Below are positions 1,934 through 39,754 of a DNA stretch of 64,000 nt, one piece after another (position 1 is the stretch's first letter; each line of letters opens with the position of its first letter). The stretch lies in the IMG/VR virus record IMGVR_UViG_3300036770_003016; one strand, given 5' to 3'. The notes beneath the pieces are model-generated. The model was not told the DNA's origin. It saw only the letters and a program-made list of their open reading frames with translations, and ran no database searches. The position numbers were made by a program, and so were the translations under genes. Origin of the DNA: a virus.

Positions 1934-2136
1934 TCGCTTTCATCAGTTATTGTTACAGTAAATTCACCTTCTGTATCTTTATGGGTTACATAGAAGGTGG
2001 CCGTTAGCGTAGTTCCTATACTATTATCACCAGTTTGTGCAAGAGTAACAGAACCATAATCTTCAGATTCATTCATTACATCAAATAGTTTATAGAGTTT
2101 TTCCAACTCTCTACGACTTAATCTTACGGTGTTCAT
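1927..2136 (-). CDS. Hypothetical protein
   Basis: ORF track, operon packing. Confidence 0.65.
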   Translation of the reverse strand: MNTVRLSRRELEKLYKLFDVMNESEDYGSVTLAQTGDNSIGTTLTATFYVTHKDTEGEFTVTITDESDW

Positions 2137-2360
2137 TCTATCAAAGTCCTATTCTGTATATCAAAATAATTCTCAATTGCTTTCTTGGCATATTCCATAT
2201 TAATGTAATGGCCAATCAACTCATCTGTAACCATTAGCTTGGCACCCCAGATATCGGTATGAGCCATATTGTATACTTGAGCAATGACCCGTCCATCTAT
2301 AGAATCGTAATAATATGAACCAGTACCTCTTGCATAGTCAGACCATTTACCTATAATCAT
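2133..2360 (-). CDS. Hypothetical protein
   Basis: ORF track, ATGA coupling. Confidence 0.65.
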   Translation of the reverse strand: MIIGKWSDYARGTGSYYYDSIDGRVIAQVYNMAHTDIWGAKLMVTDELIGHYINMEYAKKAIENYFDIQNRTLIE

Positions 2361-2749
2361 TTCTCACTCTCCAATAGTTTAGTGTACTCGTACTGCCTTG
2401 CTTTTGCTTTCATATAATGATCAGCACAGAGAGTTTTCATCCATGATAAATCTCCTCTTGTTTTCCCCTGTTTACCACATTCTTCACAGATATGCTCACT
2501 CATTGCTTCTGTAAGATCAAATACACCATCAATGTATTCTGAGTACATTGAATGATCGGTAAAATAGATTCTGAGACCGCCAAACTTTTCTTTGACTTGA
2601 TCTAGTGTTATATGACCAGCATTAGGATTAGACATATGCTTCCGATGTAGATGATTGTCAATAATAGTGAGTGCGGTTTCAATGAGTGGAATCCAACCAG
2701 GACCACACTCAAACTCTACTAATCCAATATGTTTATAGTTTCTGTTCAT
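2357..2749 (-). CDS. Conserved phage protein with QVKEKFGGLR motif and C-terminal Zn-binding CxxC
   Basis: GW.PLI, QVKEKFGGLRIY, CEECG...KTLC..H. Confidence 0.75.
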   Translation of the reverse strand: MNRNYKHIGLVEFECGPGWIPLIETALTIIDNHLHRKHMSNPNAGHITLDQVKEKFGGLRIYFTDHSMYSEYIDGVFDLTEAMSEHICEECGKQGKTRGDLSWMKTLCADHYMKAKARQYEYTKLLESEK

Positions 2750-2906
2750 TATCTTTACTCATCAATTCTTCAATACGATTTGCAGCCTCTTCCAATAGAT
2801 CAGCAATACGGTCAGGTTGCCCTTCCTGTACTGATTTCCTTGTTGGTATCTGTCTGCGAATCTCGGCACGCTTACGAAGCCGATATACTAGGTCATCATT
2901 GCTCAT
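2733..2906 (-). CDS. Hypothetical protein (57 aa)
   Basis: Manual translation MSNDDLVYRLRKRAEIRRQIPTRKSVQEGQPDRIADLLEEAANRIEELMSKDNEQKL. Confidence 0.7.
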   Translation of the reverse strand: MSNDDLVYRLRKRAEIRRQIPTRKSVQEGQPDRIADLLEEAANRIEELMSKDNEQKL

Positions 2907-3096
2907 CTAAACTATCAATCCATTTATTATAATCAGTAGGTGACATGTAGTATTGTAAAACTGTTCGGATGGCATCCTTACATTTACTACTATATTCATC
3001 ACTAAATTCTTCATTCAAAGAATCATATGATACTTTAAGGTCGTGTGCAACCAGTTTTGTTACTTCTTCTGCATCAAGTGTAATTTGATAACTCAT
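2896..3096 (-). CDS. Hypothetical protein
   Basis: ORF track. Confidence 0.6.
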   Translation of the reverse strand: MSYQITLDAEEVTKLVAHDLKVSYDSLNEEFSDEYSSKCKDAIRTVLQYYMSPTDYNKWIDSLDEQ

Positions 3097-3350
3097 AGTT
3101 TAGTTTCCTCATAGGCTTTAGGAGATGGTAGATCACTATAATGATCCCACATTGGTTTATTAGATACAATATCAGGTGCTGACTCTGCAATACGATCTAT
3201 GTCAAACTTGGTAGGATAATGCTTGAGTGTAGCTCGTGCTCGATAACGAATCGCAGCAGGCACTTTAGGTGTTACCTTTGGGTTGCATAGATCCAATAGG
3301 AATTGTTCAGCACATTTCATTGCACGGTATCGCTCATCAGGTAAGGTCAT
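3093..3350 (-). CDS. BPSL0761-like small protein
   Basis: MTLPDERYRA...FL.DL...IR..A...LKHYP pattern; GAGGA RBS before ATG at 3350. Confidence 0.6.
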   Translation of the reverse strand: MTLPDERYRAMKCAEQFLLDLCNPKVTPKVPAAIRYRARATLKHYPTKFDIDRIAESAPDIVSNKPMWDHYSDLPSPKAYEETKL

Positions 3351-5332: not shown

Positions 5333-6037
5333 CTAGAGAATTTTATTGAAAAGTTTACATTTATCGCCGTGATATCTAGCATAGTTACCTAAATCTAAAA
5401 CACGATTACAATGAATACAGGTCTTTTTTGGTCTGTTTTTTGTTTCTTCACTCATCTTTTTTAGTCTATCTTCATCGTATTTTATACCTTTATTTGGATG
5501 AACATAATTTGGATCATCTAATGTTTTTCTCAATGAGGCAATTTGTTTCTTAACTGATTCTGGGTCTTTTTTAACACCTTTAAATTTCTCACTAACAATT
5601 CTTCTTTGATTATCTGATTGTTTTTTACCATACATACCAACTTTTTTTTCTTGATGCAATCTTTTAACCAAGTCACTCTTTTTTTCTTTTATTTTTAGTT
5701 GACCTAATTTTAGTTTTTCACAAGTTTCTTCGTACATAGGGTGTTCTTTGTATAAGACTGTTACGCCTCCTTTACCACCCAATGATATGTTATAATAGTC
5801 TTCATCACCAATTATTTTTTCATTGACCAATTCTTTTTCTTTTTTGTTCATATCTTCTTCATTATCAAAAATAAACAATATTTTCTTCTGAAAATTGTCT
5901 TTACCATATTTTTTTATGGCATTTTTTAAATATATTCCAGAGCCTAGATAACTGTCATCTATTTTTTCTGTTATATGTTTACCAATATATTTTTTATTCG
6001 TCAATAAATTGGTCGTTTCGTAAATAGTATAAAACAT
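5333..6037 (-). mobile_element. Free-standing GIY-YIG (Seg-like) homing endonuclease
   Basis: TIYETTNL..KKYIGKH, YLGSG, YYNISLGG, basic NUMOD-like tract, C-terminal CxxC..YHGDKC; GGAGG RBS precedes ATG at 6037. Confidence 0.9.
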
Positions 6038-6090
6038 AGTTTCCTCCATATTTTATACTATTTATTAAAATTTAACTTTAGAGGAGATTT

Positions 6091-6843
6091 TTAAACATCA
6101 ATATCTAAATTATTACAAGCAATGATCCAGTCCCTCACCAAAGAACTTCTACAGATATCATCTACTGTAAATTCTATGAGTGTGAAGTCTTTCATAGTTT
6201 TGGCTACATCCAAAAACTGTTTAATACCAGAAACATCACTACTCTTTTTATTCAAATCATTCTGTCTGTAGTCACCACACCAAATAATCTTTGACCTATA
6301 CCCGACCCTGGTCATCACAGTAGAAATTTCACTCCAATTCATGTTCTGACATTCATCCACTATGATTATAGCGTCATCAAAAGACATACCACGAATGAAA
6401 CTGGTACTAATGAAACTGATATGGCCTTGTTCATCTAGTCTCTGATATGCATCACGGCGACCAAATAGTGTCTCGCATATCTGCCTGTATGGTTGTTCAT
6501 AGATTTCCATTTTCTCTGATGCATCACCAGGCAGATGGCCAATCTCTCTTGATTGTACTGCCGAACGAACTATGATTATTTTATTGAATGGGTTTGATTT
6601 GTCAAGAACTTCTTCTAATGCCTTGTAAAGTGCAATAAATGTCTTGCCTGTTCCTGCAACGCCATGTAATGCTATAAAATAGTCACCTCGTTTATAGGCG
6701 TCAAAGAATTGTTTCTGATGGTCTGTAAGTGGGTCAAATGTTTTTAAATCGTCTATTCTTATTTTAAGATGGTGGTTTGTATTACCGTTCTTAGGTGTAG
6801 TGGTGTTCTCTGTTTCTGTATTTGCGGTCTGTTTACGGGCCAT
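6091..6843 (-). CDS. phoH: PhoH-like ATPase
   Basis: GVAGTGKT Walker A, RSAV, IGHLPG, FIRGMSF, DECQN, GDYRQNDL. Confidence 0.95.
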   Translation of the reverse strand: MARKQTANTETENTTTPKNGNTNHHLKIRIDDLKTFDPLTDHQKQFFDAYKRGDYFIALHGVAGTGKTFIALYKALEEVLDKSNPFNKIIIVRSAVQSREIGHLPGDASEKMEIYEQPYRQICETLFGRRDAYQRLDEQGHISFISTSFIRGMSFDDAIIIVDECQNMNWSEISTVMTRVGYRSKIIWCGDYRQNDLNKKSSDVSGIKQFLDVAKTMKDFTLIEFTVDDICRSSLVRDWIIACNNLDIDV

Positions 6844-7264: not shown

Positions 7265-7413
7265 TCATCGTCTTCTTCAATTTCTTCCTCATCTTCGATT
7301 ATATATGAACTACAGAACGGGCAGTAGGTTGGCCTGTCTTCTACCTGTTCTTCGTCATATTTAATTTTAAATTCAGAATCGCAATCGCTACATGTATGAC
7401 TTAATGTTGCCAT
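7261..7413 (-). CDS. Small zinc-ribbon protein with acidic tail (50 aa)
   Basis: Manual translation: CSDC...CPFC, then EDEEEIEEDDE. Confidence 0.75.
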   Translation of the reverse strand: MATLSHTCSDCDSEFKIKYDEEQVEDRPTYCPFCSSYIIEDEEEIEEDDE

Positions 7414-7832
7414 TAATTACACCATGATGACTTCTTTTCACCGTGATAGGGTCTTGCATGGCCATTTGCAATTAATAGTTCTGATAACTTTTTCCCATCA
7501 AGGATTACATCACCTAATACCCTTCCACCATACTTATCATGGGACTCTAGAAGGATTTGTGTGACTTTGGCATTTTTTACAGCATTTTTAGTAAATTCTG
7601 ATGCAGCAATGGCAGCCTTGGCCTCTTTATCACATTGAGCTCTATGACCCTTCTCAGGAGTATCAACACCAAGAACACGAATTGAAAGTAATGGTTTTAA
7701 TGGTGCAGGCATAAATGGTGCTTCAAATTCTACTGTATCACCATCAATGACCCTTGTGATTTTATAATTGTATGGATTAGCAAGTGATGCCGAACCCATC
7801 ATCATAAAAATTAGAAAAATTATTTTTTTCAA
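7413..7832 (-). CDS. Thermonuclease (SNase-like) with signal peptide
   Basis: RVIDGDT, IRVLGVDTPE, DKYGGRVLG; TTG start at 7832 after AAGGAG. Confidence 0.9.
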   Translation of the reverse strand: MKKIIFLIFMMMGSASLANPYNYKITRVIDGDTVEFEAPFMPAPLKPLLSIRVLGVDTPEKGHRAQCDKEAKAAIAASEFTKNAVKNAKVTQILLESHDKYGGRVLGDVILDGKKLSELLIANGHARPYHGEKKSSWCN

Positions 7833-7846
7833 AGTTTTAACTCCTT

Positions 7847-7942
7847 CTAAAATATTTCCCATAGCATCCATAGTACGATGAGTCCTATAAGACCTACGAG
7901 AAAAGTGCCTATTATATCCACTAGTAACATATTGAAAAACAT
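7847..7942 (-). CDS. Small membrane protein (31 aa)
   Basis: Manual translation MFFNMLLVDIIGTFLVGLIGLIVLWMLWEIF. Confidence 0.5.
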   Translation of the reverse strand: MFFNMLLVDIIGTFLVGLIGLIVLWMLWEIF

Positions 7943-8946
7943 TATGCTGCTTTGCCCCATACATCTTCCCATGTTCCAGACAATGCACCTTTGGCGTAGT
8001 CTGTAACACGGTTCTCAAAGAAATTACCGTGAATAGGTGCATTGAGTATTTCTTCTACCCAAGGCAATGGATTCTTTTTGACTTTGAAAATGCCTTTCAT
8101 TCCCATGCTAATTAATCTACGGTCAGCAATATAACGAATGTATTGTTTAACATCTTGTGCGGTCAAGTTTGGCATGTCTCCCATATCAAATGCAAGGTCA
8201 ATAAATTTGTCTTCAAGTTCAACCATTCGTGTTGCAATGGTATATATTTTACCTTTCAGGTCATCATTCCAAATCTCTTTGTTCTCCTCTATATATGTTC
8301 TAAAGAGTTTAATCATAGACTCAGTGTGCATTGTTTCATCAACAATAGACCATGTAACGATTTGACCCATACCCTTCATAAGGCCATGGCGTGGGAAGTT
8401 TAACAACATTATAAACGACGAAAATAATTGCATGCCTTCTGTAAAAGCACTAAAGGCAGCAATATGGGCAGCAGTAGACTCAATAGTGCCGTTTTTTGAA
8501 GATAGGTCCAGAATGTACTCATGTTTCTCTCTCATTTGTGCGTATTCTAGAAATTCGTCATATGTAGAGTCTGGCATGCCAAGTGTTTCGATCAAGTGCG
8601 AATATGCTGCAATATGTAATGCTTCCCTTGCGGCGAAGCCAAGTAACATCATGCGAACTTCTGGTTGTGGAAAATAGGGTAGATAGTTATTAACATAACC
8701 TCCTGCAACATCAACATCGCCTTGTGTGAAGAAACGAAAGATGTTTGTAAGGAATTGTTTTTGTGATGCTGTAAGTTTATTCTTCCAATCTTTTACATCT
8801 TCAAGCATTGGAACTTCTGAGTGTAACCAGTGAGCCTGTTCGTGCTTTAACCATGCCTCGTAAGCCCATGGATAATTAAATGGTTTAAAACTGTTTCTCT
8901 CGTCTGTTAGTCTTGTTTTTGCTTTCTTGATCATTTCTATCTCCAA
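7942..8946 (-). CDS. nrdB: Ribonucleotide reductase class Ia beta subunit
   Basis: FFTQGD, REALHIAAY, EGMQLFSSF, DETMH, NFFE motifs. Confidence 0.95.
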   Translation of the reverse strand: MEIEMIKKAKTRLTDERNSFKPFNYPWAYEAWLKHEQAHWLHSEVPMLEDVKDWKNKLTASQKQFLTNIFRFFTQGDVDVAGGYVNNYLPYFPQPEVRMMLLGFAAREALHIAAYSHLIETLGMPDSTYDEFLEYAQMREKHEYILDLSSKNGTIESTAAHIAAFSAFTEGMQLFSSFIMLLNFPRHGLMKGMGQIVTWSIVDETMHTESMIKLFRTYIEENKEIWNDDLKGKIYTIATRMVELEDKFIDLAFDMGDMPNLTAQDVKQYIRYIADRRLISMGMKGIFKVKKNPLPWVEEILNAPIHGNFFENRVTDYAKGALSGTWEDVWGKAA

Positions 8947-9647
8947 TAATTAGAATAGTCTATACTATCCCAGTATTTTTTGTTGTTGCGGTTCCAAAAA
9001 TTCTTAATCAGATACCAGGCCATGCCAAAATATCCCATCTTTTTAAATCTTCTACTATCTTGTCCAAAGTAATGTTTGAGTAGTTTAAACTTTTTAGGGT
9101 CATACATTTTTGATAAAAAGAAATCTTCACTTGTTTGGTACTTTGCAGGGAATCTACCGAGTTCTTCAAATTTTGATCTTCTTGTCAAAAAGAAAGCACC
9201 TACAGCAAATGGTACCCAAGGTTTCATTATACGATTGATAATATTGAATAGTGAAAAACCAATTTTTGTTCTGATATCATCATCATAACATTTTATATAG
9301 AGGCCAATCAAGTCTAAATTGTTGTTTTCTATTTCATTTACCGAATCTTGTATGACAGTATTACTGAAAAATCTCACATCACTATCTATAAACAAAATAT
9401 ATGGTGTAGTGACCAATTTTGCACCATTATTCTTGGCAATTGAAACTGGCCCACCATCAATTATCTCAACATTCAAATCACCTTTATTTTTTTCTATGAC
9501 ATTTCTGGTGTTATCAGTAGATGCGTCAGCGATGATGATTCTGGTACTTCCTATGTTTTGAAGTCGCAAATCATTTAGTAGATGATGTATGTAATCCTCT
9601 TCATTTTTACAAGGAACAACAATCGTTATTTTTTCTGATAGATTCAT
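8937..9647 (-). CDS. Glycosyltransferase family 2
   Basis: IVVPCKNEE, DASTDNT, FIDSD (DxD), SEDFF, SRRF. Confidence 0.9.
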   Translation of the reverse strand: MNLSEKITIVVPCKNEEDYIHHLLNDLRLQNIGSTRIIIADASTDNTRNVIEKNKGDLNVEIIDGGPVSIAKNNGAKLVTTPYILFIDSDVRFFSNTVIQDSVNEIENNNLDLIGLYIKCYDDDIRTKIGFSLFNIINRIMKPWVPFAVGAFFLTRRSKFEELGRFPAKYQTSEDFFLSKMYDPKKFKLLKHYFGQDSRRFKKMGYFGMAWYLIKNFWNRNNKKYWDSIDYSNYWR

Positions 9648-9868
9648 TTAAGTAACTCGTTTATGTTTTTGACTTGTTCTTCGACATCGTATTTATTTCC
9701 TACAGTAACAGGCACACACATACCACCTTTGTATTGTTTTGCATACTTCTCGCATGGTTCTTTTGTCTGCCAGGCCTCTACAAATACTGGTTTGGCACCA
9801 ACATGTGCAACAATTACGATTGCCCATATGATGTTCATACAATATCTTTCCAGAAAACTAGTTCCCAC
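9644..9868 (-). CDS. Small secreted/membrane hypothetical protein
   Basis: Hydrophobic N-terminal segment, Cys pair. Confidence 0.55.
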   Translation of the reverse strand: MGTSFLERYCMNIIWAIVIVAHVGAKPVFVEAWQTKEPCEKYAKQYKGGMCVPVTVGNKYDVEEQVKNINELLK

Positions 9869-10578
9869 TTACCATCTGTATGCTCAACTAGTGCAGAACA
9901 GCTTTCGACCCAATCGCCATCATTCATATAGACCACACCATCAATATCTTTAATCTCTGCGGTGTGTATATGACCACAAATTACACCATCATAACCTTTT
10001 CTTTTGCAATATGAAGAAAGGTTAGATTCAAATTTAAAAACAAAATCAACTGCTCTTTTTACTCTTGATTTTAAATATTTACTGAGTGACCAATAACCAA
10101 AACCAAGTCTGTGGCGAACAGCATTAAATTTAGTATTCAGTGCAAGTACAAAATCATAAGCCTTATCACCTAGAAATGAGATCCACGGTGCAAGGCGTGT
10201 AATACCGTCGAATAAGTCTCCATGAGTGACCAAATAGTGCTTGCCATCAACGCCAATGTGTTCAAACTGATTGTAGATTTCAACATTTCCAAAACTGAAA
10301 CCGTATGGCAACATTGGTCTGAGAAATTCATCATGGTTTCCCGCAATGTAGATAACTCTTGTGCCCCTCTTTGCATAACCTAATATCCTTCTGACTACAT
10401 TTGTATGACTTTGTTTCCATCGCCATTTGTTTTGTTGAATTTTCCAACCATCAATTATATCACCTATAAGATATAAAGTGTCACAAGTATTGTTCTTAAG
10501 AAAATTATTTAATAAATCTGCTTTACAATCTTTAGTTCCCAAATGCACATCACTAATGAATATGCTTTTGTAGTGCAT
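9835..10578 (-). CDS. Metallophosphoesterase, PlcP-like phospholipase C (LpxH superfamily)
   Basis: SDVHLG, GDIIDGW, WKQSHTNVV, GNHD, HGDLFD, CGHIH, NDGDWVESCSALVE. Confidence 0.85.
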   Translation of the reverse strand: MHYKSIFISDVHLGTKDCKADLLNNFLKNNTCDTLYLIGDIIDGWKIQQNKWRWKQSHTNVVRRILGYAKRGTRVIYIAGNHDEFLRPMLPYGFSFGNVEIYNQFEHIGVDGKHYLVTHGDLFDGITRLAPWISFLGDKAYDFVLALNTKFNAVRHRLGFGYWSLSKYLKSRVKRAVDFVFKFESNLSSYCKRKGYDGVICGHIHTAEIKDIDGVVYMNDGDWVESCSALVEHTDGKWELVFWKDIV

Positions 10579-10587
10579 TTTTTTCCT

Positions 10588-11220
10588 TTAAGCTAAGATT
10601 ATTTTGCAAATATGTTCTAATCTTTCAATGTGTTCAAATGCTCTCCATGGCGAAGAATCAATTGAAACAACACCATGACGATCTATTCCCACAATATCAT
10701 ACTTAATTAAGCCTTTATACAACTCAAGATTCTTAACTGTTGCATTGGCTAATTCTTGTGAAATTGGTGCAACTTCTGGTACTGTTGGTGCTACACTTGT
10801 ATATCTACCTAGTTCTGGAAACTCTGATACAAGTTTTGTTAAATCAATTCCTTTATACATCGCTGCAACTGTGTATGTTGGATGCATATGTAGTACAACA
10901 CGAATTTCTGTTCTTGGTGAAAGTTCTTTTTGCAGTTCAAAATGCAAAGGTATTTCACCTGATGGTTTTAGACCAGAAGAAATTGGAGTGTACTCTATTT
11001 CTTGCCATGTGTGTTCCATTATTGGTGGTTGACCAAAGTAACCACTTTCTATATGTATTTTCTTAAACATTTCTGGCTGTAAATGTTGTTTTCTGACACC
11101 AGAAGGAGTTATAAAAAAGTGTTTTTGATCCCTGTGACGTATAGATGCATTACCATCACGAGCAGATATCCAACCTCTCTGATAACCTTCTTTGAACACT
11201 TCGCATATAGTTTCTAACAT
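10588..11220 (-). CDS. Class II aldolase/adducin family protein
   Basis: DGNASIR, ITPSG, KPSGEIPLH, HMHP, HGVV. Confidence 0.85.
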   Translation of the reverse strand: MLETICEVFKEGYQRGWISARDGNASIRHRDQKHFFITPSGVRKQHLQPEMFKKIHIESGYFGQPPIMEHTWQEIEYTPISSGLKPSGEIPLHFELQKELSPRTEIRVVLHMHPTYTVAAMYKGIDLTKLVSEFPELGRYTSVAPTVPEVAPISQELANATVKNLELYKGLIKYDIVGIDRHGVVSIDSSPWRAFEHIERLEHICKIILA

Positions 11221-11239: not shown

Positions 11240-13033
11240 TTATTGACATGCTAAACATTCATCCCCTTCTGCAATTGCTTTCATATCAATTTCTTCAATT
11301 ACTTTTCTCTCAATCTGTTTTGACACTTTATCTGCCTTTGCCAATTTCTCTGAACGGCAGTAGTACAATGTCTTGAGGCCTTTCTTCCATGCTAGAAAGT
11401 GTGCAGCATGTAGATACTGGACATTTACATCTGGCCGAAAAAAGAGGTTAACGGATTGCGCTTGGTCAATGTAACTCTGTCTGTCAGCTGCGTGCTCCAC
11501 GATCCATCGTTGGTCAATCTCCATGCTCGTTTTAAATACATCCTTGGTCCACTCGTCAAGGAACTCAAGGTGTTGAACGGATCCATCGTTCGCAATGATA
11601 CTTGACCAAATGTCTGAGTAATCGAGGGTTGTGTCAGCATTACATTTCTCCTGAATTATTTTGTCGAGGTATTTGTTTTTGTTAAGGAAAGCTCCCGATA
11701 GTGTGTCTTGCCTATAAGCATTAGCACGATAAGGCTCAATAGAAGGACTTGTGTTACCCATGATGATTGAACTACTAGCATTAGGAGCAATTGCCATAAC
11801 ATGGCTAAAACGCAGGCCAGTACCAACAGCATCGGGAGCTTCACCTCTTTCTGCACCAAGTTCTTTATTTGCAACATTTAATTTCTCTCTTATGTTCTTA
11901 AAGATTTGTAGATTTCTAGACTTTGCTAGTGCTGACTCAAATGCAACATTATTTTTCTGCAAATAAGCATGGAAACCAAGAGCACCAATACCAATAGAAC
12001 GCTCACGGGTAGCAGAATACTTTGCACGATACACAGAATTAGGTGCTTTATCAATAAAATACTGTAGAACATTATCGAGCATCTCTGCAACATCTTTGAG
12101 GAATAAATTATCATTTTTCCATTCATCATAGTATTCTAAATTGACAGAAGACAAGCAACAAACAGCTGTTCGTTCTTTATCTGTTGGTAGAATAATCTCA
12201 GAGCACAGATTTGATTGTTTGATACTTAGACCAAGTTTCTTTTGAAACTCAGGCATTTCACGATTACTGGTATCAATGAAGTGTAGATAAGGTTCACCAG
12301 TCTGCATACGAATCTCTAGAATTCTCTGCCATAGTTCTTTTGCAGGTACAGAATCACGAACACTACCATCGTGTGGGTCTTTTAGATACCATGTATCATC
12401 TGCATGTGGGTCTTTCATACACTTTTCAATTAACTGCATGAAGTCATCTGTAATGTTGATGCCATGGTGTAGATTCAAGCAACGCATATTCTGGTCGCCT
12501 GTTGGTTTTCTCATTTCTAAAAAGATAAGAATATCGGGATGAGATATATCAAGGTAAGCAGCATAGCTACCACGCCTGGTCCTACCTTGTCTATACGCAA
12601 GACTAGACGCATCATATGTGCGAAGATGAGGCATAACACCAACAGACTTATCATCAGCGGATCTGATACCAATTCCAATTCCAACACCTCCTCCTAACAT
12701 TGACAACCAATTTACTTCTGAAAGGGTGTCAACAAGGCCCTCAGCAGAGTCGTCCAAATATGGCAAAAAGCAAGATATAGGAAGCCCACGCTTACTCCTA
12801 CCATAAGATAGAATAGGAGTGGAATAGCTGAGCCAATGTCTACTACTATATTCATAAAGTCTCTGAGCATGTCCAGGATTTGATCCAAAAGCCTTTGAAA
12901 CATATGCGAACCTTTCTTGTGGAGAGTTTTCATCTTCTCTCATGTAACTTTCTCTTAATCTTTTTTTACCTAGTTCATCAAATAACGAATCTCTAGTGAA
13001 ATCAACGGTAATGCCGTGAACTATGTCAGCCAT
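11240..13033 (-). CDS. nrdA: Ribonucleotide reductase class Ia alpha subunit
   Basis: PISCF, GGGVG, QSNLCSEI, APNASSS, TLYY, C-terminal CLAC. Confidence 0.95.
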   Translation of the reverse strand: MADIVHGITVDFTRDSLFDELGKKRLRESYMREDENSPQERFAYVSKAFGSNPGHAQRLYEYSSRHWLSYSTPILSYGRSKRGLPISCFLPYLDDSAEGLVDTLSEVNWLSMLGGGVGIGIGIRSADDKSVGVMPHLRTYDASSLAYRQGRTRRGSYAAYLDISHPDILIFLEMRKPTGDQNMRCLNLHHGINITDDFMQLIEKCMKDPHADDTWYLKDPHDGSVRDSVPAKELWQRILEIRMQTGEPYLHFIDTSNREMPEFQKKLGLSIKQSNLCSEIILPTDKERTAVCCLSSVNLEYYDEWKNDNLFLKDVAEMLDNVLQYFIDKAPNSVYRAKYSATRERSIGIGALGFHAYLQKNNVAFESALAKSRNLQIFKNIREKLNVANKELGAERGEAPDAVGTGLRFSHVMAIAPNASSSIIMGNTSPSIEPYRANAYRQDTLSGAFLNKNKYLDKIIQEKCNADTTLDYSDIWSSIIANDGSVQHLEFLDEWTKDVFKTSMEIDQRWIVEHAADRQSYIDQAQSVNLFFRPDVNVQYLHAAHFLAWKKGLKTLYYCRSEKLAKADKVSKQIERKVIEEIDMKAIAEGDECLACQ

Positions 13034-13048
13034 AAAATACTCCAGTTA

Positions 13049-13705
13049 TTATTGTTCTACGAATTCTTTTGCCATGGGAAATACCTTGGCAATTACTTCA
13101 GCGCAGGCCTTTGCGACCTCTATGTGTTCTTTCTGTGTTCCGTTGCCAGAACGCAATTGTATGTAGTGGATCCATGATCTAAGTGTGCCATTCATGTATA
13201 ATCTTGATACTGTTAATCCTTCAGGTAATACTGCACGAGCTTGTTCTTTTGCAATTCCGTTTTTGATTGCCCAATCATATTCTCTTTTTGCGGCAAATAA
13301 AACTCTTTTCTGAGCTCTTTCCCATTCAATCTGTAACATATTGTCATCAGTTTCAATACTATTTTGACGATTCTTCTCGTCTTGTAATCTTGCCTCACGA
13401 ATTACAAAATCCAAGTCTTTTGTTGGGTCTGCGTATCGTTGACTAAACTCTTGAAACGAAAATGAACGATGCCTTAACATTTGTCTTGCAATATCTCTTG
13501 TTGTAGTAATTTCCAAACACATATTTACCATTTCTAATGGTGAAAAATGGCAATTTTTAATCAAATAACGAACCAATTTTTCACTCGTTTCTCTATTATT
13601 TTGATTACTTGGATTTGAAACTCTTGCACAAAACGCAACCAATTCTGTCATATTTTCTGCAAAATATTCTGACGGTTGACTATAACTAATCAATTCTACT
13701 TTCAT
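13049..13705 (-). CDS. thyX: Flavin-dependent thymidylate synthase
   Basis: RHRSFSFQEFSQRY ThyX motif. Confidence 0.95.
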   Translation of the reverse strand: MKVELISYSQPSEYFAENMTELVAFCARVSNPSNQNNRETSEKLVRYLIKNCHFSPLEMVNMCLEITTTRDIARQMLRHRSFSFQEFSQRYADPTKDLDFVIREARLQDEKNRQNSIETDDNMLQIEWERAQKRVLFAAKREYDWAIKNGIAKEQARAVLPEGLTVSRLYMNGTLRSWIHYIQLRSGNGTQKEHIEVAKACAEVIAKVFPMAKEFVEQ

Positions 13706-38534: not shown

Positions 38535-38651
38535 TCATTTGCCTTTTAATTGACGAATTACTTCTTCGATCTCGCCTCGGATACTTTCGTTTGAGGAGGG
38601 TATCCAAGGCAAAATATGTTGCAATAATCTAATTACATCTTGTGGGTTCAT
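38535..38651 (-). CDS. Small hypothetical protein (38 aa)
   Basis: Manual translation MNPQDVIRLLQHILPWIPSSNESIRGEIEEVIRQLKGK; ATGA-coupled to pstS. Confidence 0.55.
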   Translation of the reverse strand: MNPQDVIRLLQHILPWIPSSNESIRGEIEEVIRQLKGK

Positions 38652-39664
38652 TTGTTATTAATCTGACTCCAAACTTTTTCACGAATCTGTTTTGTTAGTA
38701 TATCAGGAAGTGGAACATAGTCAAGCTCTAATGCTAACTGTTTGCCATTCTTAAATGCCCAATCAAAGAACTTTAGAACTTCTTGTGACTGTGCTTTGTC
38801 TGCTGGATCTTTGTACATAATAATAAATGATGCAGTAGAAACTGGCCATGCATCTTTACCTTTCTGATCTACAATACTCAAACCCATACCTGGTACTGAG
38901 AACCAATCAGCACCTGCAGCTGCAGCAGCAAAAGTCTTGTCATCTGGATCTACAAACACACCATCTTTGTTTTGTAGTTTCAAATGAGGAATCTTATTCT
39001 TCTTAGCATATGCATACTCAACATATCCAATAGAACCTTTGATTCGTGACACATTTGCAGCGACACCTTCGTTACCTTTACCACCTACACTACTTGCTGC
39101 TGGCCATTTTACTGCTGCACCTCTTCCAACCTTCTCTGCCCACTCTTTACTCACAACAGTAAGATAGTCAGTCCAGTTAAAAGTTGTGCCAGAACCATCA
39201 GCACGGTGAACTACTGTAATTGCAAGGTCTGGTAGTTTCTTACCAGGATTTAATGCAGCAAGTTTTGGATCATTCCAATTTGTAATAGTTCCCATAAACA
39301 ATTCTGCAAGGATTGGTCCAGTAACTCTCAACTCACCAGGAGCAAATCCATCTAAGTTAATAACTGGAACAGTACCACCAATAACTGCTGGGAATTGCAC
39401 CTGGCCATTCTTATCTAAATCTTCTCCTTTTACTGGAGCGTCAGAAGCACCAAAAGTAACTGTCTTTGCATTGATCTGTCTAATACCACCAGAGCTACCA
39501 ATACTCTGATAGTTTAATCCAACACCAGTTTCTTTCTTATATGCCTCTGCCCACTTAGCATAGATTGGATATGGGAAAGTAGCACCAGCACCTGTAATAT
39601 CTGCGGCAAAAGCAGAAACAGATACTACAGATGCAACGAAAACACTTAACAATTTATTAATCAA
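38648..39664 (-). CDS. pstS: Phosphate ABC transporter substrate-binding protein
   Basis: Signal peptide; GAGATFPYP, YQSIGSSGG, RADGSGTT, GKGNEGV. Confidence 0.97.
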   Translation of the reverse strand: MINKLLSVFVASVVSVSAFAADITGAGATFPYPIYAKWAEAYKKETGVGLNYQSIGSSGGIRQINAKTVTFGASDAPVKGEDLDKNGQVQFPAVIGGTVPVINLDGFAPGELRVTGPILAELFMGTITNWNDPKLAALNPGKKLPDLAITVVHRADGSGTTFNWTDYLTVVSKEWAEKVGRGAAVKWPAASSVGGKGNEGVAANVSRIKGSIGYVEYAYAKKNKIPHLKLQNKDGVFVDPDDKTFAAAAAGADWFSVPGMGLSIVDQKGKDAWPVSTASFIIMYKDPADKAQSQEVLKFFDWAFKNGKQLALELDYVPLPDILTKQIREKVWSQINNK

Positions 39665-39754
39665 TTTTTTCTCCTTTATTCAAATTCAGTGACAATTGTA
39701 ATAATTGTCATAATTATTTAACATGACGAACATCAAAAAACAGCGTTTTCAAAT

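Follow-up and report, generated by a model that had tools for sequence, protein, structure and literature searches.

A three-gene cassette of a T4-like phage as a predicted viral form of the bacterial PlcP-Agt lipid-renovation pathway

The ribonucleotide reductase (RNR) operon of a T4-like phage contains three coupled genes, which code for a metallophosphoesterase of the PlcP family, a small protein of 64 aa and a family 2 glycosyltransferase (GT2). We regard it as probable that they form a phage counterpart of bacterial PlcP-Agt lipid renovation, with the GT2 in the place of Agt. Judged from the sequences, the phage probably converts host phospholipids to phosphorus-free glycolipids in infection.

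The window analysed here is a stretch of 64,000 nucleotides. Its source is a T4-like myovirus with homologues of gp23, gp43, gp44 and gp46, of which gp23 and gp43 are 64% and 51% identical, respectively, to those of cultured phages. The phage is aquatic, T4-like and lytic. On the minus strand, nrdA is followed by a class II aldolase-like gene, the phosphoesterase gene, the 64-aa ORF, the GT2 gene and nrdB; hardly any DNA separates these genes. All genes named in the initial annotation, including pstS and phoH, were located on this strand:

11240..13033, minus strand: nrdA, class I ribonucleotide reductase alpha (NF006577, 762 bits, above cut-off)
10588..11220, minus strand: class II aldolase/adducin-family protein, 210 aa (PF00596, E=5e-29)
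9835..10578, minus strand: metallophosphoesterase of the PlcP family, 247 aa, predicted to be a metal-dependent phospholipase C (Pfam Metallophos, E=1.5e-14)
9644..9838, minus strand: small ORF specific to viruses, 64 aa, which completes the cassette (ATGA overlaps on both sides)
8937..9647, minus strand: GT2, GT-A fold, 236 aa, proposed diacylglycerol glycosyltransferase (PF00535, E=6e-20)
7942..8934, minus strand: nrdB, ribonucleotide reductase beta (NF007186, 436 bits, above cut-off)
6091..6843, minus strand: phoH, context (phrog_170, E=2.6e-84)
38648..39664, minus strand: pstS, context, 28 kb away from the cassette (phrog_5385, E=1.9e-65)

The start codon of nrdB is most likely the ATG at 8934, 2 bases past the GT2 stop codon, rather than the TTG at 8946. 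The GT2 gene had been described as following the phosphoesterase gene; it does lie downstream on the same strand, but not directly, because the 64-aa ORF is situated in between. Start/stop overlaps of the type ATGA couple this ORF to both the phosphoesterase and the GT2 gene.

The metal-binding motifs of calcineurin-like phosphoesterases (DxH, GD, GNHD, HGD, GHxH) are complete in the phosphoesterase. Its translation contains SDVHLG, GDIIDGW, WRWKQSHTNVV, GNHD, HGD, GHIH and NDGDWVESCSALVE, and every motif listed in the initial annotation, including GNHD and the last of this series, can be read in it. Residues D10, H12, D40, N81, H82, D83, H119, H203 and H205 are invariant among 30 family members. 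GNHD is likewise kept throughout these members, whereas LpxH has GNRD; this difference from E. coli LpxH, which had been pointed out before, was confirmed at the aligned position.

JGI entries of near-identical proteins and the GenBank entries of homologues from the phages Mosig and S-SRM01 are labelled LpxH. A true LpxH (UDP-2,3-diacylglucosamine diphosphatase) would boost or redirect the lipid A synthesis of the host, and the structure could be read in the same direction: the AF2 model (pLDDT 89) features an LpxH-type core with a helical cap, and LpxH structures account for each of the top 24 matches in the PDB, which makes LpxH the closest solved structure. The fold as modelled fits a lipid substrate. 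However, the scores obtained for the NCBIfam equivalogs of LpxH, 45.4 bits for NF003743 and 37.3 bits for TIGR01854, fall below the cut-offs of 134 and 190. The identity to E. coli LpxH is 23%, compared to 53% to plcP-operon proteins, and the arginine of GNRD is absent. In the phylogenetic tree, a long starred branch separates LpxH from all other rows, and the phosphoesterase is found on its far side. In addition, true LpxH and this PlcP family coexist in genomes of Pseudomonas, Chromobacterium, Thiomicrorhabdus and Acidovorax; Thalassospira features only the PlcP-like family, without a true LpxH. Based on these scores, the GNHD motif, the low identity, the split in the tree and the coexistence with true LpxH, we rejected the identification as LpxH and consider such a function highly improbable. 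The viral phosphoesterase is usually mis-annotated as LpxH in databases.

The genomic context of the bacterial relatives provides an additional means of assigning the phosphoesterase. Proteobacterial relatives show identities of 49-57% across its full length. In 62 of 80 bacterial relatives, an Agt-like GT4 gene is located directly downstream, with a gene for diacylglycerol (DAG) kinase found in 23 and for BtaA in four. Their gene neighbourhood marks the nearest bacterial relatives as plcP genes, since this layout matches the plcP-agt-dagK operon, which has been characterised experimentally (PMC13691135, PMC4796936). Proteins encoded in plcP-agt operons are nearer to the phosphoesterase than LpxH is, PlcP orthology being based here on operon context. 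The LpxH cut-offs, the tree and this context support the original proposal of a PlcP-like enzyme rather than LpxH. In a quick tree, the viral sequences form a clade that appears to branch off just outside bacterial PlcP, at moderate support (SH-aLRT 83-88). The viral clade thus seems neither nested in the bacterial PlcP sequences nor placed beside sequence G279, which is labelled SAR11-like from its GC content of 30% and the content of its locus.

Of the 80 viral loci nearest to that of the window, 47 carry this GT2 and 24 an Agt-like GT4 in the equivalent slot, downstream of the phosphoesterase gene and on the same strand. A glycosyltransferase is a fixed partner of the viral phosphoesterase, which bears out the linkage proposed initially from the window. 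In the tree of phosphoesterases, both types of partner are mixed, having changed at least 13 times, and alternate between near-identical phosphoesterase genes: of the nearest relatives of the enzyme of the window, L109 features GT2, while GT4 is present in L110 and L111. GT2 and the Agt-like GT4 look interchangeable because they are intermixed in this way. The viral GT4 is 36-40% identical to bacterial Agt encoded next to plcP and carries FPSxTDTFG, the motif of Agt-type GT4 (PMC8231724). Sibling phage L105 encodes a GT4 with both the Agt fold and this motif. The surroundings of the phosphoesterase-GT2 pair vary and include a 359-kb phage contig, on which the pair is not near the RNR genes.

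The 64-aa ORF has a hydrophobic N-terminus and two conserved cysteines. In sibling phages it is 69-76% identical, whether the partner is GT2 or GT4. An HMM of the ORF matched 45 of 80 loci from IMG/VR, while no match was obtained in 87 bacterial plcP loci; the ORF is virus-specific. Searches of Pfam and PHROG yielded no match. An assignment to DUF1482, which came from an Atlas lead (0.87), was dropped, as the Pfam search did not confirm it.

The GT2 domain was detected at 72 bits, where the cut-off is 23 (PF00535), and its DxD motif is D88-S-D90. The structure model (pLDDT 80) has a GT-A fold. In the PDB, this model matches GT-A enzymes of a generic kind, the best being teichoic-acid and polysaccharide GT2s, which do not indicate the acceptor. 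The C-terminal 41 residues include 12 aromatic and 9 basic ones. Homologues of the GT2 were found neither in the 80 bacterial plcP loci nor in 301 sampled genomes of alphaproteobacteria. Model PF13506 reached 26 bits, which is barely above its cut-off, and is also positive in 10 of 14 control genomes. Since this model is unspecific and BLASTP gave no similarity to a strong GT21 protein of Mesorhizobium, an assignment to Pgt/GT21 was rejected. Assignment to Agt was rejected as well, the enzyme being a GT2 of GT-A fold and not a GT-B GT4 with FPSxTDTFG.

The missing relationship to Agt and Pgt would also be expected if the phosphoesterase alone acted on lipids and the GT2 modified LPS/O-antigen, protein or phage DNA. 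Weak matches in PHROGs to GtrB-like proteins of O-antigen conversion, the teichoic-acid and polysaccharide enzymes among the best PDB matches and the placement of the gene among nucleotide-metabolism genes point in this direction. We nevertheless consider it distinctly unlikely, as the GT2 shares translational coupling with the phosphoesterase and the small ORF, follows the phosphoesterase in more than half of the viral loci despite their varied surroundings, the 359-kb contig included, and alternates with an Agt-like GT4 beside near-identical phosphoesterase genes. The aromatic and basic C-terminal tail would suit a membrane interface. Use of diacylglycerol by the GT2, as suggested at the outset, is supported indirectly by the exchange with the Agt-like GT4 in sibling phages, while the lack of relationship to Agt (GT4) and Pgt (GT21) speaks against it.

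The aldolase gene had been named along with the pair, and co-expression with RNR had been proposed. For the aldolase-like protein, all NCBIfam equivalogs scored below their cut-offs. Its gene lies between nrdA and nrdB in L107, where the cassette is absent, and after nrdB, apart from the cassette, in L105; we therefore rejected it as a member of the cassette. In relatives, the cassette is found outside nrdA-nrdB or beside pstS (L007, Mosig). A functional tie between cassette and RNR was rejected because the position of the cassette differs among related phages. Both the presence of the aldolase gene and the location within the RNR operon are incidental, since related phages position them independently. 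The gap between nrdA and nrdB is a slot that accepts inserts.

The gaps upstream of the cassette are 9 and 19 nt, and the cassette has no promoter of its own. A scan for sigma-70 promoters and terminators yielded nothing beyond the shuffled expectation inside the operon. A search of the window for Pho boxes of the E. coli type gave no matches, although this consensus may not be that of the host.

By homology, we predict that the phosphoesterase splits glycerophospholipids of the host on the cytoplasmic side of the inner membrane, yielding diacylglycerol and a phospho-head group. Linkage and the exchange with GT4 suggest that the GT2 would then use a nucleotide sugar to glycosylate the diacylglycerol; the product would be a glycolipid free of phosphorus, and the bilayer would stay intact. 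The 64-aa protein may be an accessory subunit. Because the cassette is located inside the thyX-nrdA-nrdB operon, it would be produced along with the enzymes of nucleotide synthesis. The benefit would probably be that less phosphorus is held in membrane lipid, or that phosphorus is released, during phage DNA synthesis. PlcP yields phospho-head groups and not free phosphate, such that a phosphatase is still required; the cassette contains no phosphatase gene.

The same activities could serve another aim, i.e. a rebuilt envelope against superinfection, membrane stability until lysis or a change of the cell surface, and not phosphorus. As neither a Pho box nor a separate promoter was found, expression of the cassette would be constitutive, along with that of early or middle genes, which fits such an aim. 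Glycosyltransferases of pelagimyophages have been proposed to change the host surface against co-infection (PMC7029224), and two studies describe lipid remodelling in bacteria as affecting interactions with predators and phages (PMC9457565, PMC9938194). On the other hand, pstS and phoH share the window with the cassette. Co-occurrence with pstS had been named as a check: in Mosig, pstS adjoins the phosphoesterase gene, and of the 80 viral loci nearest to ours, 10, or about one eighth, have pstS no more than 5 kb from it. In a Gram-negative cell, glycolipids of the inner membrane are moreover not exposed at the surface. We therefore consider an aim other than phosphorus fairly unlikely and favour the conversion of phospholipids for the sake of phosphorus economy.

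A further-reaching proposal is put forward only tentatively. The cassette may be a three-part system that evolved in viruses instead of a borrowed operon, with a deep-branching PlcP-type enzyme, a virus-only subunit and a GT2 making a glycolipid of its own. T4-like and jumbo phages would have exchanged it among one another, and much of the 'PlcP' or 'lpxH' signal in low-phosphate waters would be viral.

To our knowledge, phages are known to control the phosphorus of their hosts at the level of uptake (pstS), whereas no such control of the membrane is known. As a rough estimate, the phospholipids of a small marine cell contain about the same number of phosphorus atoms as its genome, which is enough for several phage genomes of 170 kb. 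Our literature search found no paper on a PlcP function of phages or on membrane lipids as a phage target, in agreement with the initial statement that this is not a characterised phage function. The cassette would thus constitute a new viral form of a known lipid-renovation pathway, its activities being predicted. The viral phosphoesterase gene is common, with relatives in at least 598 IMG/VR contigs. If phages turn the phospholipid pool into glycolipid, phage yield in phosphate-poor waters hinges on this step, and glycolipid markers of bacterial phosphorus stress could in part reflect infection. Metagenomic counts of PlcP, for which BLASTP with E<1e-40 was used (PMC4796936, PMC6030836), could then also be affected, as viral copies are expected to pass this threshold. 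Likewise, the viral genes listed as 'lpxH, LPS biosynthesis' in a survey of auxiliary metabolic genes in viromes (PMC10653327) would need re-reading.

Compared to bacterial PlcP-Agt(-DagK) systems, examples of which are S. meliloti SMc00171, Phaeobacter MED193_17359, SAR11 HTCC7211 PB7211_983/960, PlcP/Agt1/Agt2 of P. aeruginosa and B. cenocepacia BCAL2364-2366, the phage phosphoesterase belongs to the same family at the identity given above and features all metal-binding motifs. A glycosyltransferase gene is likewise located just downstream on the same strand, the slot being taken by an Agt-like GT4 in sibling phages. In contrast to these systems, the partner in the window is a GT2 (GT-A) that has no equivalent in bacterial PlcP loci, the two genes are separated by one for an additional virus-specific protein, and the cassette comes without a DAG kinase and without a detected Pho box or promoter of its own. 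The phage phosphoesterase is also shorter (247 aa) than the bacterial proteins, which have N- and C-terminal extensions; its carrier is a lytic T4-like phage, and the viral clade appears to branch outside the bacterial one.

With LpxH, the phosphoesterase shares the calcineurin-like fold and a helical lipid-binding cap, but it differs by its 23% identity, scores under the cut-offs, GNHD in place of GNRD and its separate clade. Among cultured T4-like phages, Pelagibacter phage Mosig EXVC030M encodes a homologue of 53% identity (Mosig_00120), located divergently beside pstS, and the 'UDP-2,3-diacylglucosamine diphosphatase' of Synechococcus phage S-SRM01 is a homologue of 37% identity. Unlike in the window, no GT2 or GT4 gene adjoins these two homologues and no match to the HMM of the small ORF was found. 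The cassette resembles the phage genes pstS, phoH and phoA of cyanophages and pelagiphages in being host-derived, in its occurrence in T4-like phages of marine or other aquatic origin and in its relation to phosphorus economy. While those genes act in uptake or at unknown steps, the cassette would target the membrane lipids of the host.

Judged by its gene sequences, the window belongs to the genome of a T4-like myovirus. It encodes homologues of the T4-like core proteins gp23 (major head protein), gp43 (DNA polymerase), gp44 (clamp loader) and gp46, with best identities to cultured phages of 64% for gp23 and 51% for gp43; the nearest are cyanophages and Methylophilales or Pelagibacter myophages. 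The phosphoesterase gene, a small ORF and the glycosyltransferase gene GT2 form a cassette within the following gene run; the GT2 sequence is present on a contig of 173,929 bp.

13049-13705, minus strand, thyX
11240-13033, minus strand, nrdA
10588-11220, minus strand, class II aldolase-family gene
9835-10578, minus strand, calcineurin-like phosphoesterase, 247 aa
9644-9838, minus strand, small ORF, 64 aa
8937-9647, minus strand, GT2, 236 aa
7942-8934, minus strand, nrdB
7413-8042, minus strand, SNase-domain gene, directly after nrdB in the same run

From thyX to the SNase-like gene the run is nearly gapless. Direct reading of the sequence gave junctions of 19 nt between nrdA and the aldolase gene and of 9 nt between the aldolase and phosphoesterase genes, where an AGGA ribosome-binding site lies. 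The small ORF is joined to the phosphoesterase gene and to GT2 by ATGA overlaps, which couple all three genes of the cassette in translation, and the ATG of nrdB follows 2 nt after the GT2 stop. Since a site scan found no prominent promoter-like or terminator-like sites within the run, it reads as a single operon. The phosphoesterase motifs listed in the initial annotation were all recovered in translation, and phoH and pstS do lie within the window. A homing-endonuclease-like gene (phrog_314, 5333-6049) adjoins phoH. About 25-45 nt 5' of the pstS start, a 9-bp inverted repeat (ATGACAATT ... AATTGTCAC, 8/9 complementary, 39689-39711, minus strand) is a possible operator; it does not fit an E. 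coli-type Pho box.

Database annotations label near-identical metagenomic proteins, as well as the homologues in the cultured T4-like phages Mosig (Pelagibacter phage EXVC030M) and S-SRM01 (Synechococcus phage), as LpxH, the lipid A-pathway enzyme. The AlphaFold model of the phosphoesterase (pLDDT 89) has the phosphoesterase core and a long helical insertion, which in LpxH is the lipid-binding cap; LpxH structures fill the top 24 places among its PDB matches, which include no PlcP structure. At sequence level, however, the two NCBIfam LpxH models gave the protein 45 and 37 bits, far short of their cut-offs of 134 and 190, PDB LpxH chains matched it at an E-value of about 1e-3 only, and E. coli LpxH is only 23% identical, with GNRD in place of GNHD. 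In the maximum-likelihood tree, five LpxH sequences split from every other row on a long branch with 100% SH-aLRT. We therefore regard a true LpxH as very improbable.

Membership in the family of PlcP, the bacterial phospholipase C of lipid renovation, is well supported. An exhaustive profile-free search returned 939 cluster representatives at E<1e-30, and a scan of species genomes found proteobacterial relatives with 49-57% identity over the whole length. Homologues occur in 109 of 301 sampled alphaproteobacterial genomes (top identity 57%), a count that includes one unpublished genome (G246) on which no other result depends. Genomes of Pseudomonas, Chromobacterium, Thiomicrorhabdus and Acidovorax contain both this family and a true LpxH over the cut-off, while that of Thalassospira has this family only. 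The phylogeny against PlcP and LpxH suggested in the initial annotation set LpxH clearly apart. The window's seven-member viral clade branches, at moderate SH-aLRT values of 83-88, immediately outside bacterial PlcP; this quick tree shows it neither nested within that group nor beside the SAR11-like sequence. Homology at the 50% level leads us to predict phospholipase C activity.

The gene context of the bacterial relatives is that of plcP. Among 80 loci, an Agt-like GT4 gene lies directly downstream in 62, a DAG kinase gene is present in 23 and BtaA in four. In Thalassospira and Mesorhizobium the homologue is followed by GT4, with a divergent DAG kinase gene upstream in the former and DUF3419/BtaA next after GT4 in the latter; a SAR11-like genome (1.16 Mb, 30% GC) has the order OlsB-like acyltransferase, GT4, homologue, DAG kinase. 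Genes in this plcP-agt(-dagK) arrangement carry out lipid renovation, as established by mutagenesis and heterologous expression (PMC4796936; PMC13691135).

A scan of IMG/VR confirmed at least 598 viral relatives of the phosphoesterase. For the best 80 of these (77-91% identical), the same-strand gene following the phosphoesterase was a window-type GT2 in 47 loci, a GT4 in 24 and neither, with room to see, in five; a contig end intervened in the remaining four. A sibling phage (L105) has the order nrdA, phosphoesterase (75% identical), small ORF (69% identical), GT4, nrdB. Its GT4 is 36-40% identical to those beside bacterial plcP and contains FPSxTDTFG, the motif of the Agt/GTcp group (PMC8231724). 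Both partners are intermixed on the viral phosphoesterase tree, with at least 13 changes by parsimony and at least four forced by well-supported branches; the window's nearest relatives, at about 90% identity, include one locus with GT2 (L109) and two with GT4 (L110, L111). The two glycosyltransferases are thus interchanged. That one has repeatedly replaced the other beside an almost unchanged phosphoesterase is the strongest evidence in this analysis that GT2 would do the job of Agt.

The GT2 protein itself, a GT-A enzyme that carries a DxD motif, lacks homologues in the 80 bacterial plcP loci and has no close relative among GenBank phages and only partial N-terminal matches (25-35% identity) in 301 alphaproteobacterial genomes. 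Assignment to GT21 was rejected, as it is unlike the strong GT21 protein of Mesorhizobium. Fold comparison gave only matches of a generic kind (TarS, TarP, hyaluronan synthase, an archaeal mannosyltransferase). That it acts on a non-lipid acceptor seems rather unlikely to us. Two weaker hints would suit an acceptor that is lipophilic and bound to the membrane, namely the last 41 residues, with 12 aromatic and nine basic residues and no transmembrane segment, and language-model look-alikes that include, as a lead only, carotenoid and GT21-type lipid glycosyltransferase clusters.

The initial annotation had placed GT2 directly after the phosphoesterase gene, overlooking the 64-aa ORF, whose product is hydrophobic over an N-terminal stretch and contains two cysteines. 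The commoner form has 55 aa, with a well conserved pattern around the cysteines, and follows the phosphoesterase in GT2 and GT4 cassettes alike. An HMM of the small ORF matched the window, 45 of the best 80 loci and related viral loci (L003-L009, L105-L106), none of 87 bacterial plcP loci, and neither Mosig nor S-SRM01; we treat it as virus-specific. Neither Pfam nor PHROG gave a match, and DUF1482, an Atlas lead, was not confirmed. In jumbo-phage contigs, a called 294-aa 'LpxH' protein has a low-complexity C-terminal extension that overlies the small ORF in the +1 frame (6728-6900 in L003; about 5700-5930 in L161, L119 and L120). L120 has stops in the extension frame but an intact small ORF, so the longer gene call is likely to be an annotation artefact. 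We infer a role for the small protein in the cassette.

The aldolase gene, which in the initial annotation splits the RNR operon together with the phosphoesterase-GT2 pair, has a history of its own: it is the sole gene between nrdA and nrdB in one related phage (L107, 4001-4627) and stands after nrdB, apart from the cassette, in L105 (4001-4633), where the SNase gene comes after it. Related phages repeatedly carry it beside nrdA/nrdB, whether the cassette is there or not; it is 66-96% identical in many contigs of 100-190 kb and appears to retain the Zn ligands (His-x-His and a distal His); scores against the NCBIfam equivalogs MtnB, FucA, AraD and OtnC were all far under cut-off. Of the best 80 loci, 13 have the cassette in the nrdA-nrdB gap; in other phages it is 3' of nrdB, such as L007, where that gap contains a GT9-like gene and a 105-aa ORF (2133-3337). 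Inserts seen in this gap are the latter pair, the aldolase gene alone, the cassette with GT4, or aldolase plus the cassette with GT2. Because the position of the cassette varies, we consider the gap an insert-accepting slot, a hot spot in this phage group. Apart from co-transcription in this phage, we see no functional meaning in the split RNR operon.

Contigs of 359 kb that IMG/VR lists as viral (L003 / L161) share 82% identity with the window's phosphoesterase and 75% with its GT2, far above the core-gene identities to cultured phages. This suggests that phages as different as T4-like and jumbo ones have recently exchanged the cassette. We hold it to be moderately probable that the cassette turns host phospholipid into glycolipid. 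The phosphoesterase would release diacylglycerol and a phospho-head group, GT2 would convert the diacylglycerol to glycolipid, and both would be expressed along with the nucleotide-synthesis genes, to a presumed phosphorus benefit. pstS lies near the cassette in 10 of the best 80 loci and near the phosphoesterase gene in Mosig. Identical chemistry with a purpose other than phosphorus is an unlikely alternative.

In keeping with the initial annotation, phage-encoded PlcP is not known as a characterised function: full-text searches found no paper on it, and a pelagimyophage survey does not mention it (PMC7029224). In a virome survey, lpxH is one of the 'lipopolysaccharide biosynthesis' AMGs named as typical of oligotrophic surface water (PMC10653327), which fits mislabelling of viral PlcP-family genes. 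The cassette described here is a further instance of a viral trait that recurs and is apparently unpublished. New from this analysis are the GT2/GT4 interchange measured on the tree, the virus-specific small ORF, and the finding that the aldolase gene and the RNR position are incidental to the cassette.
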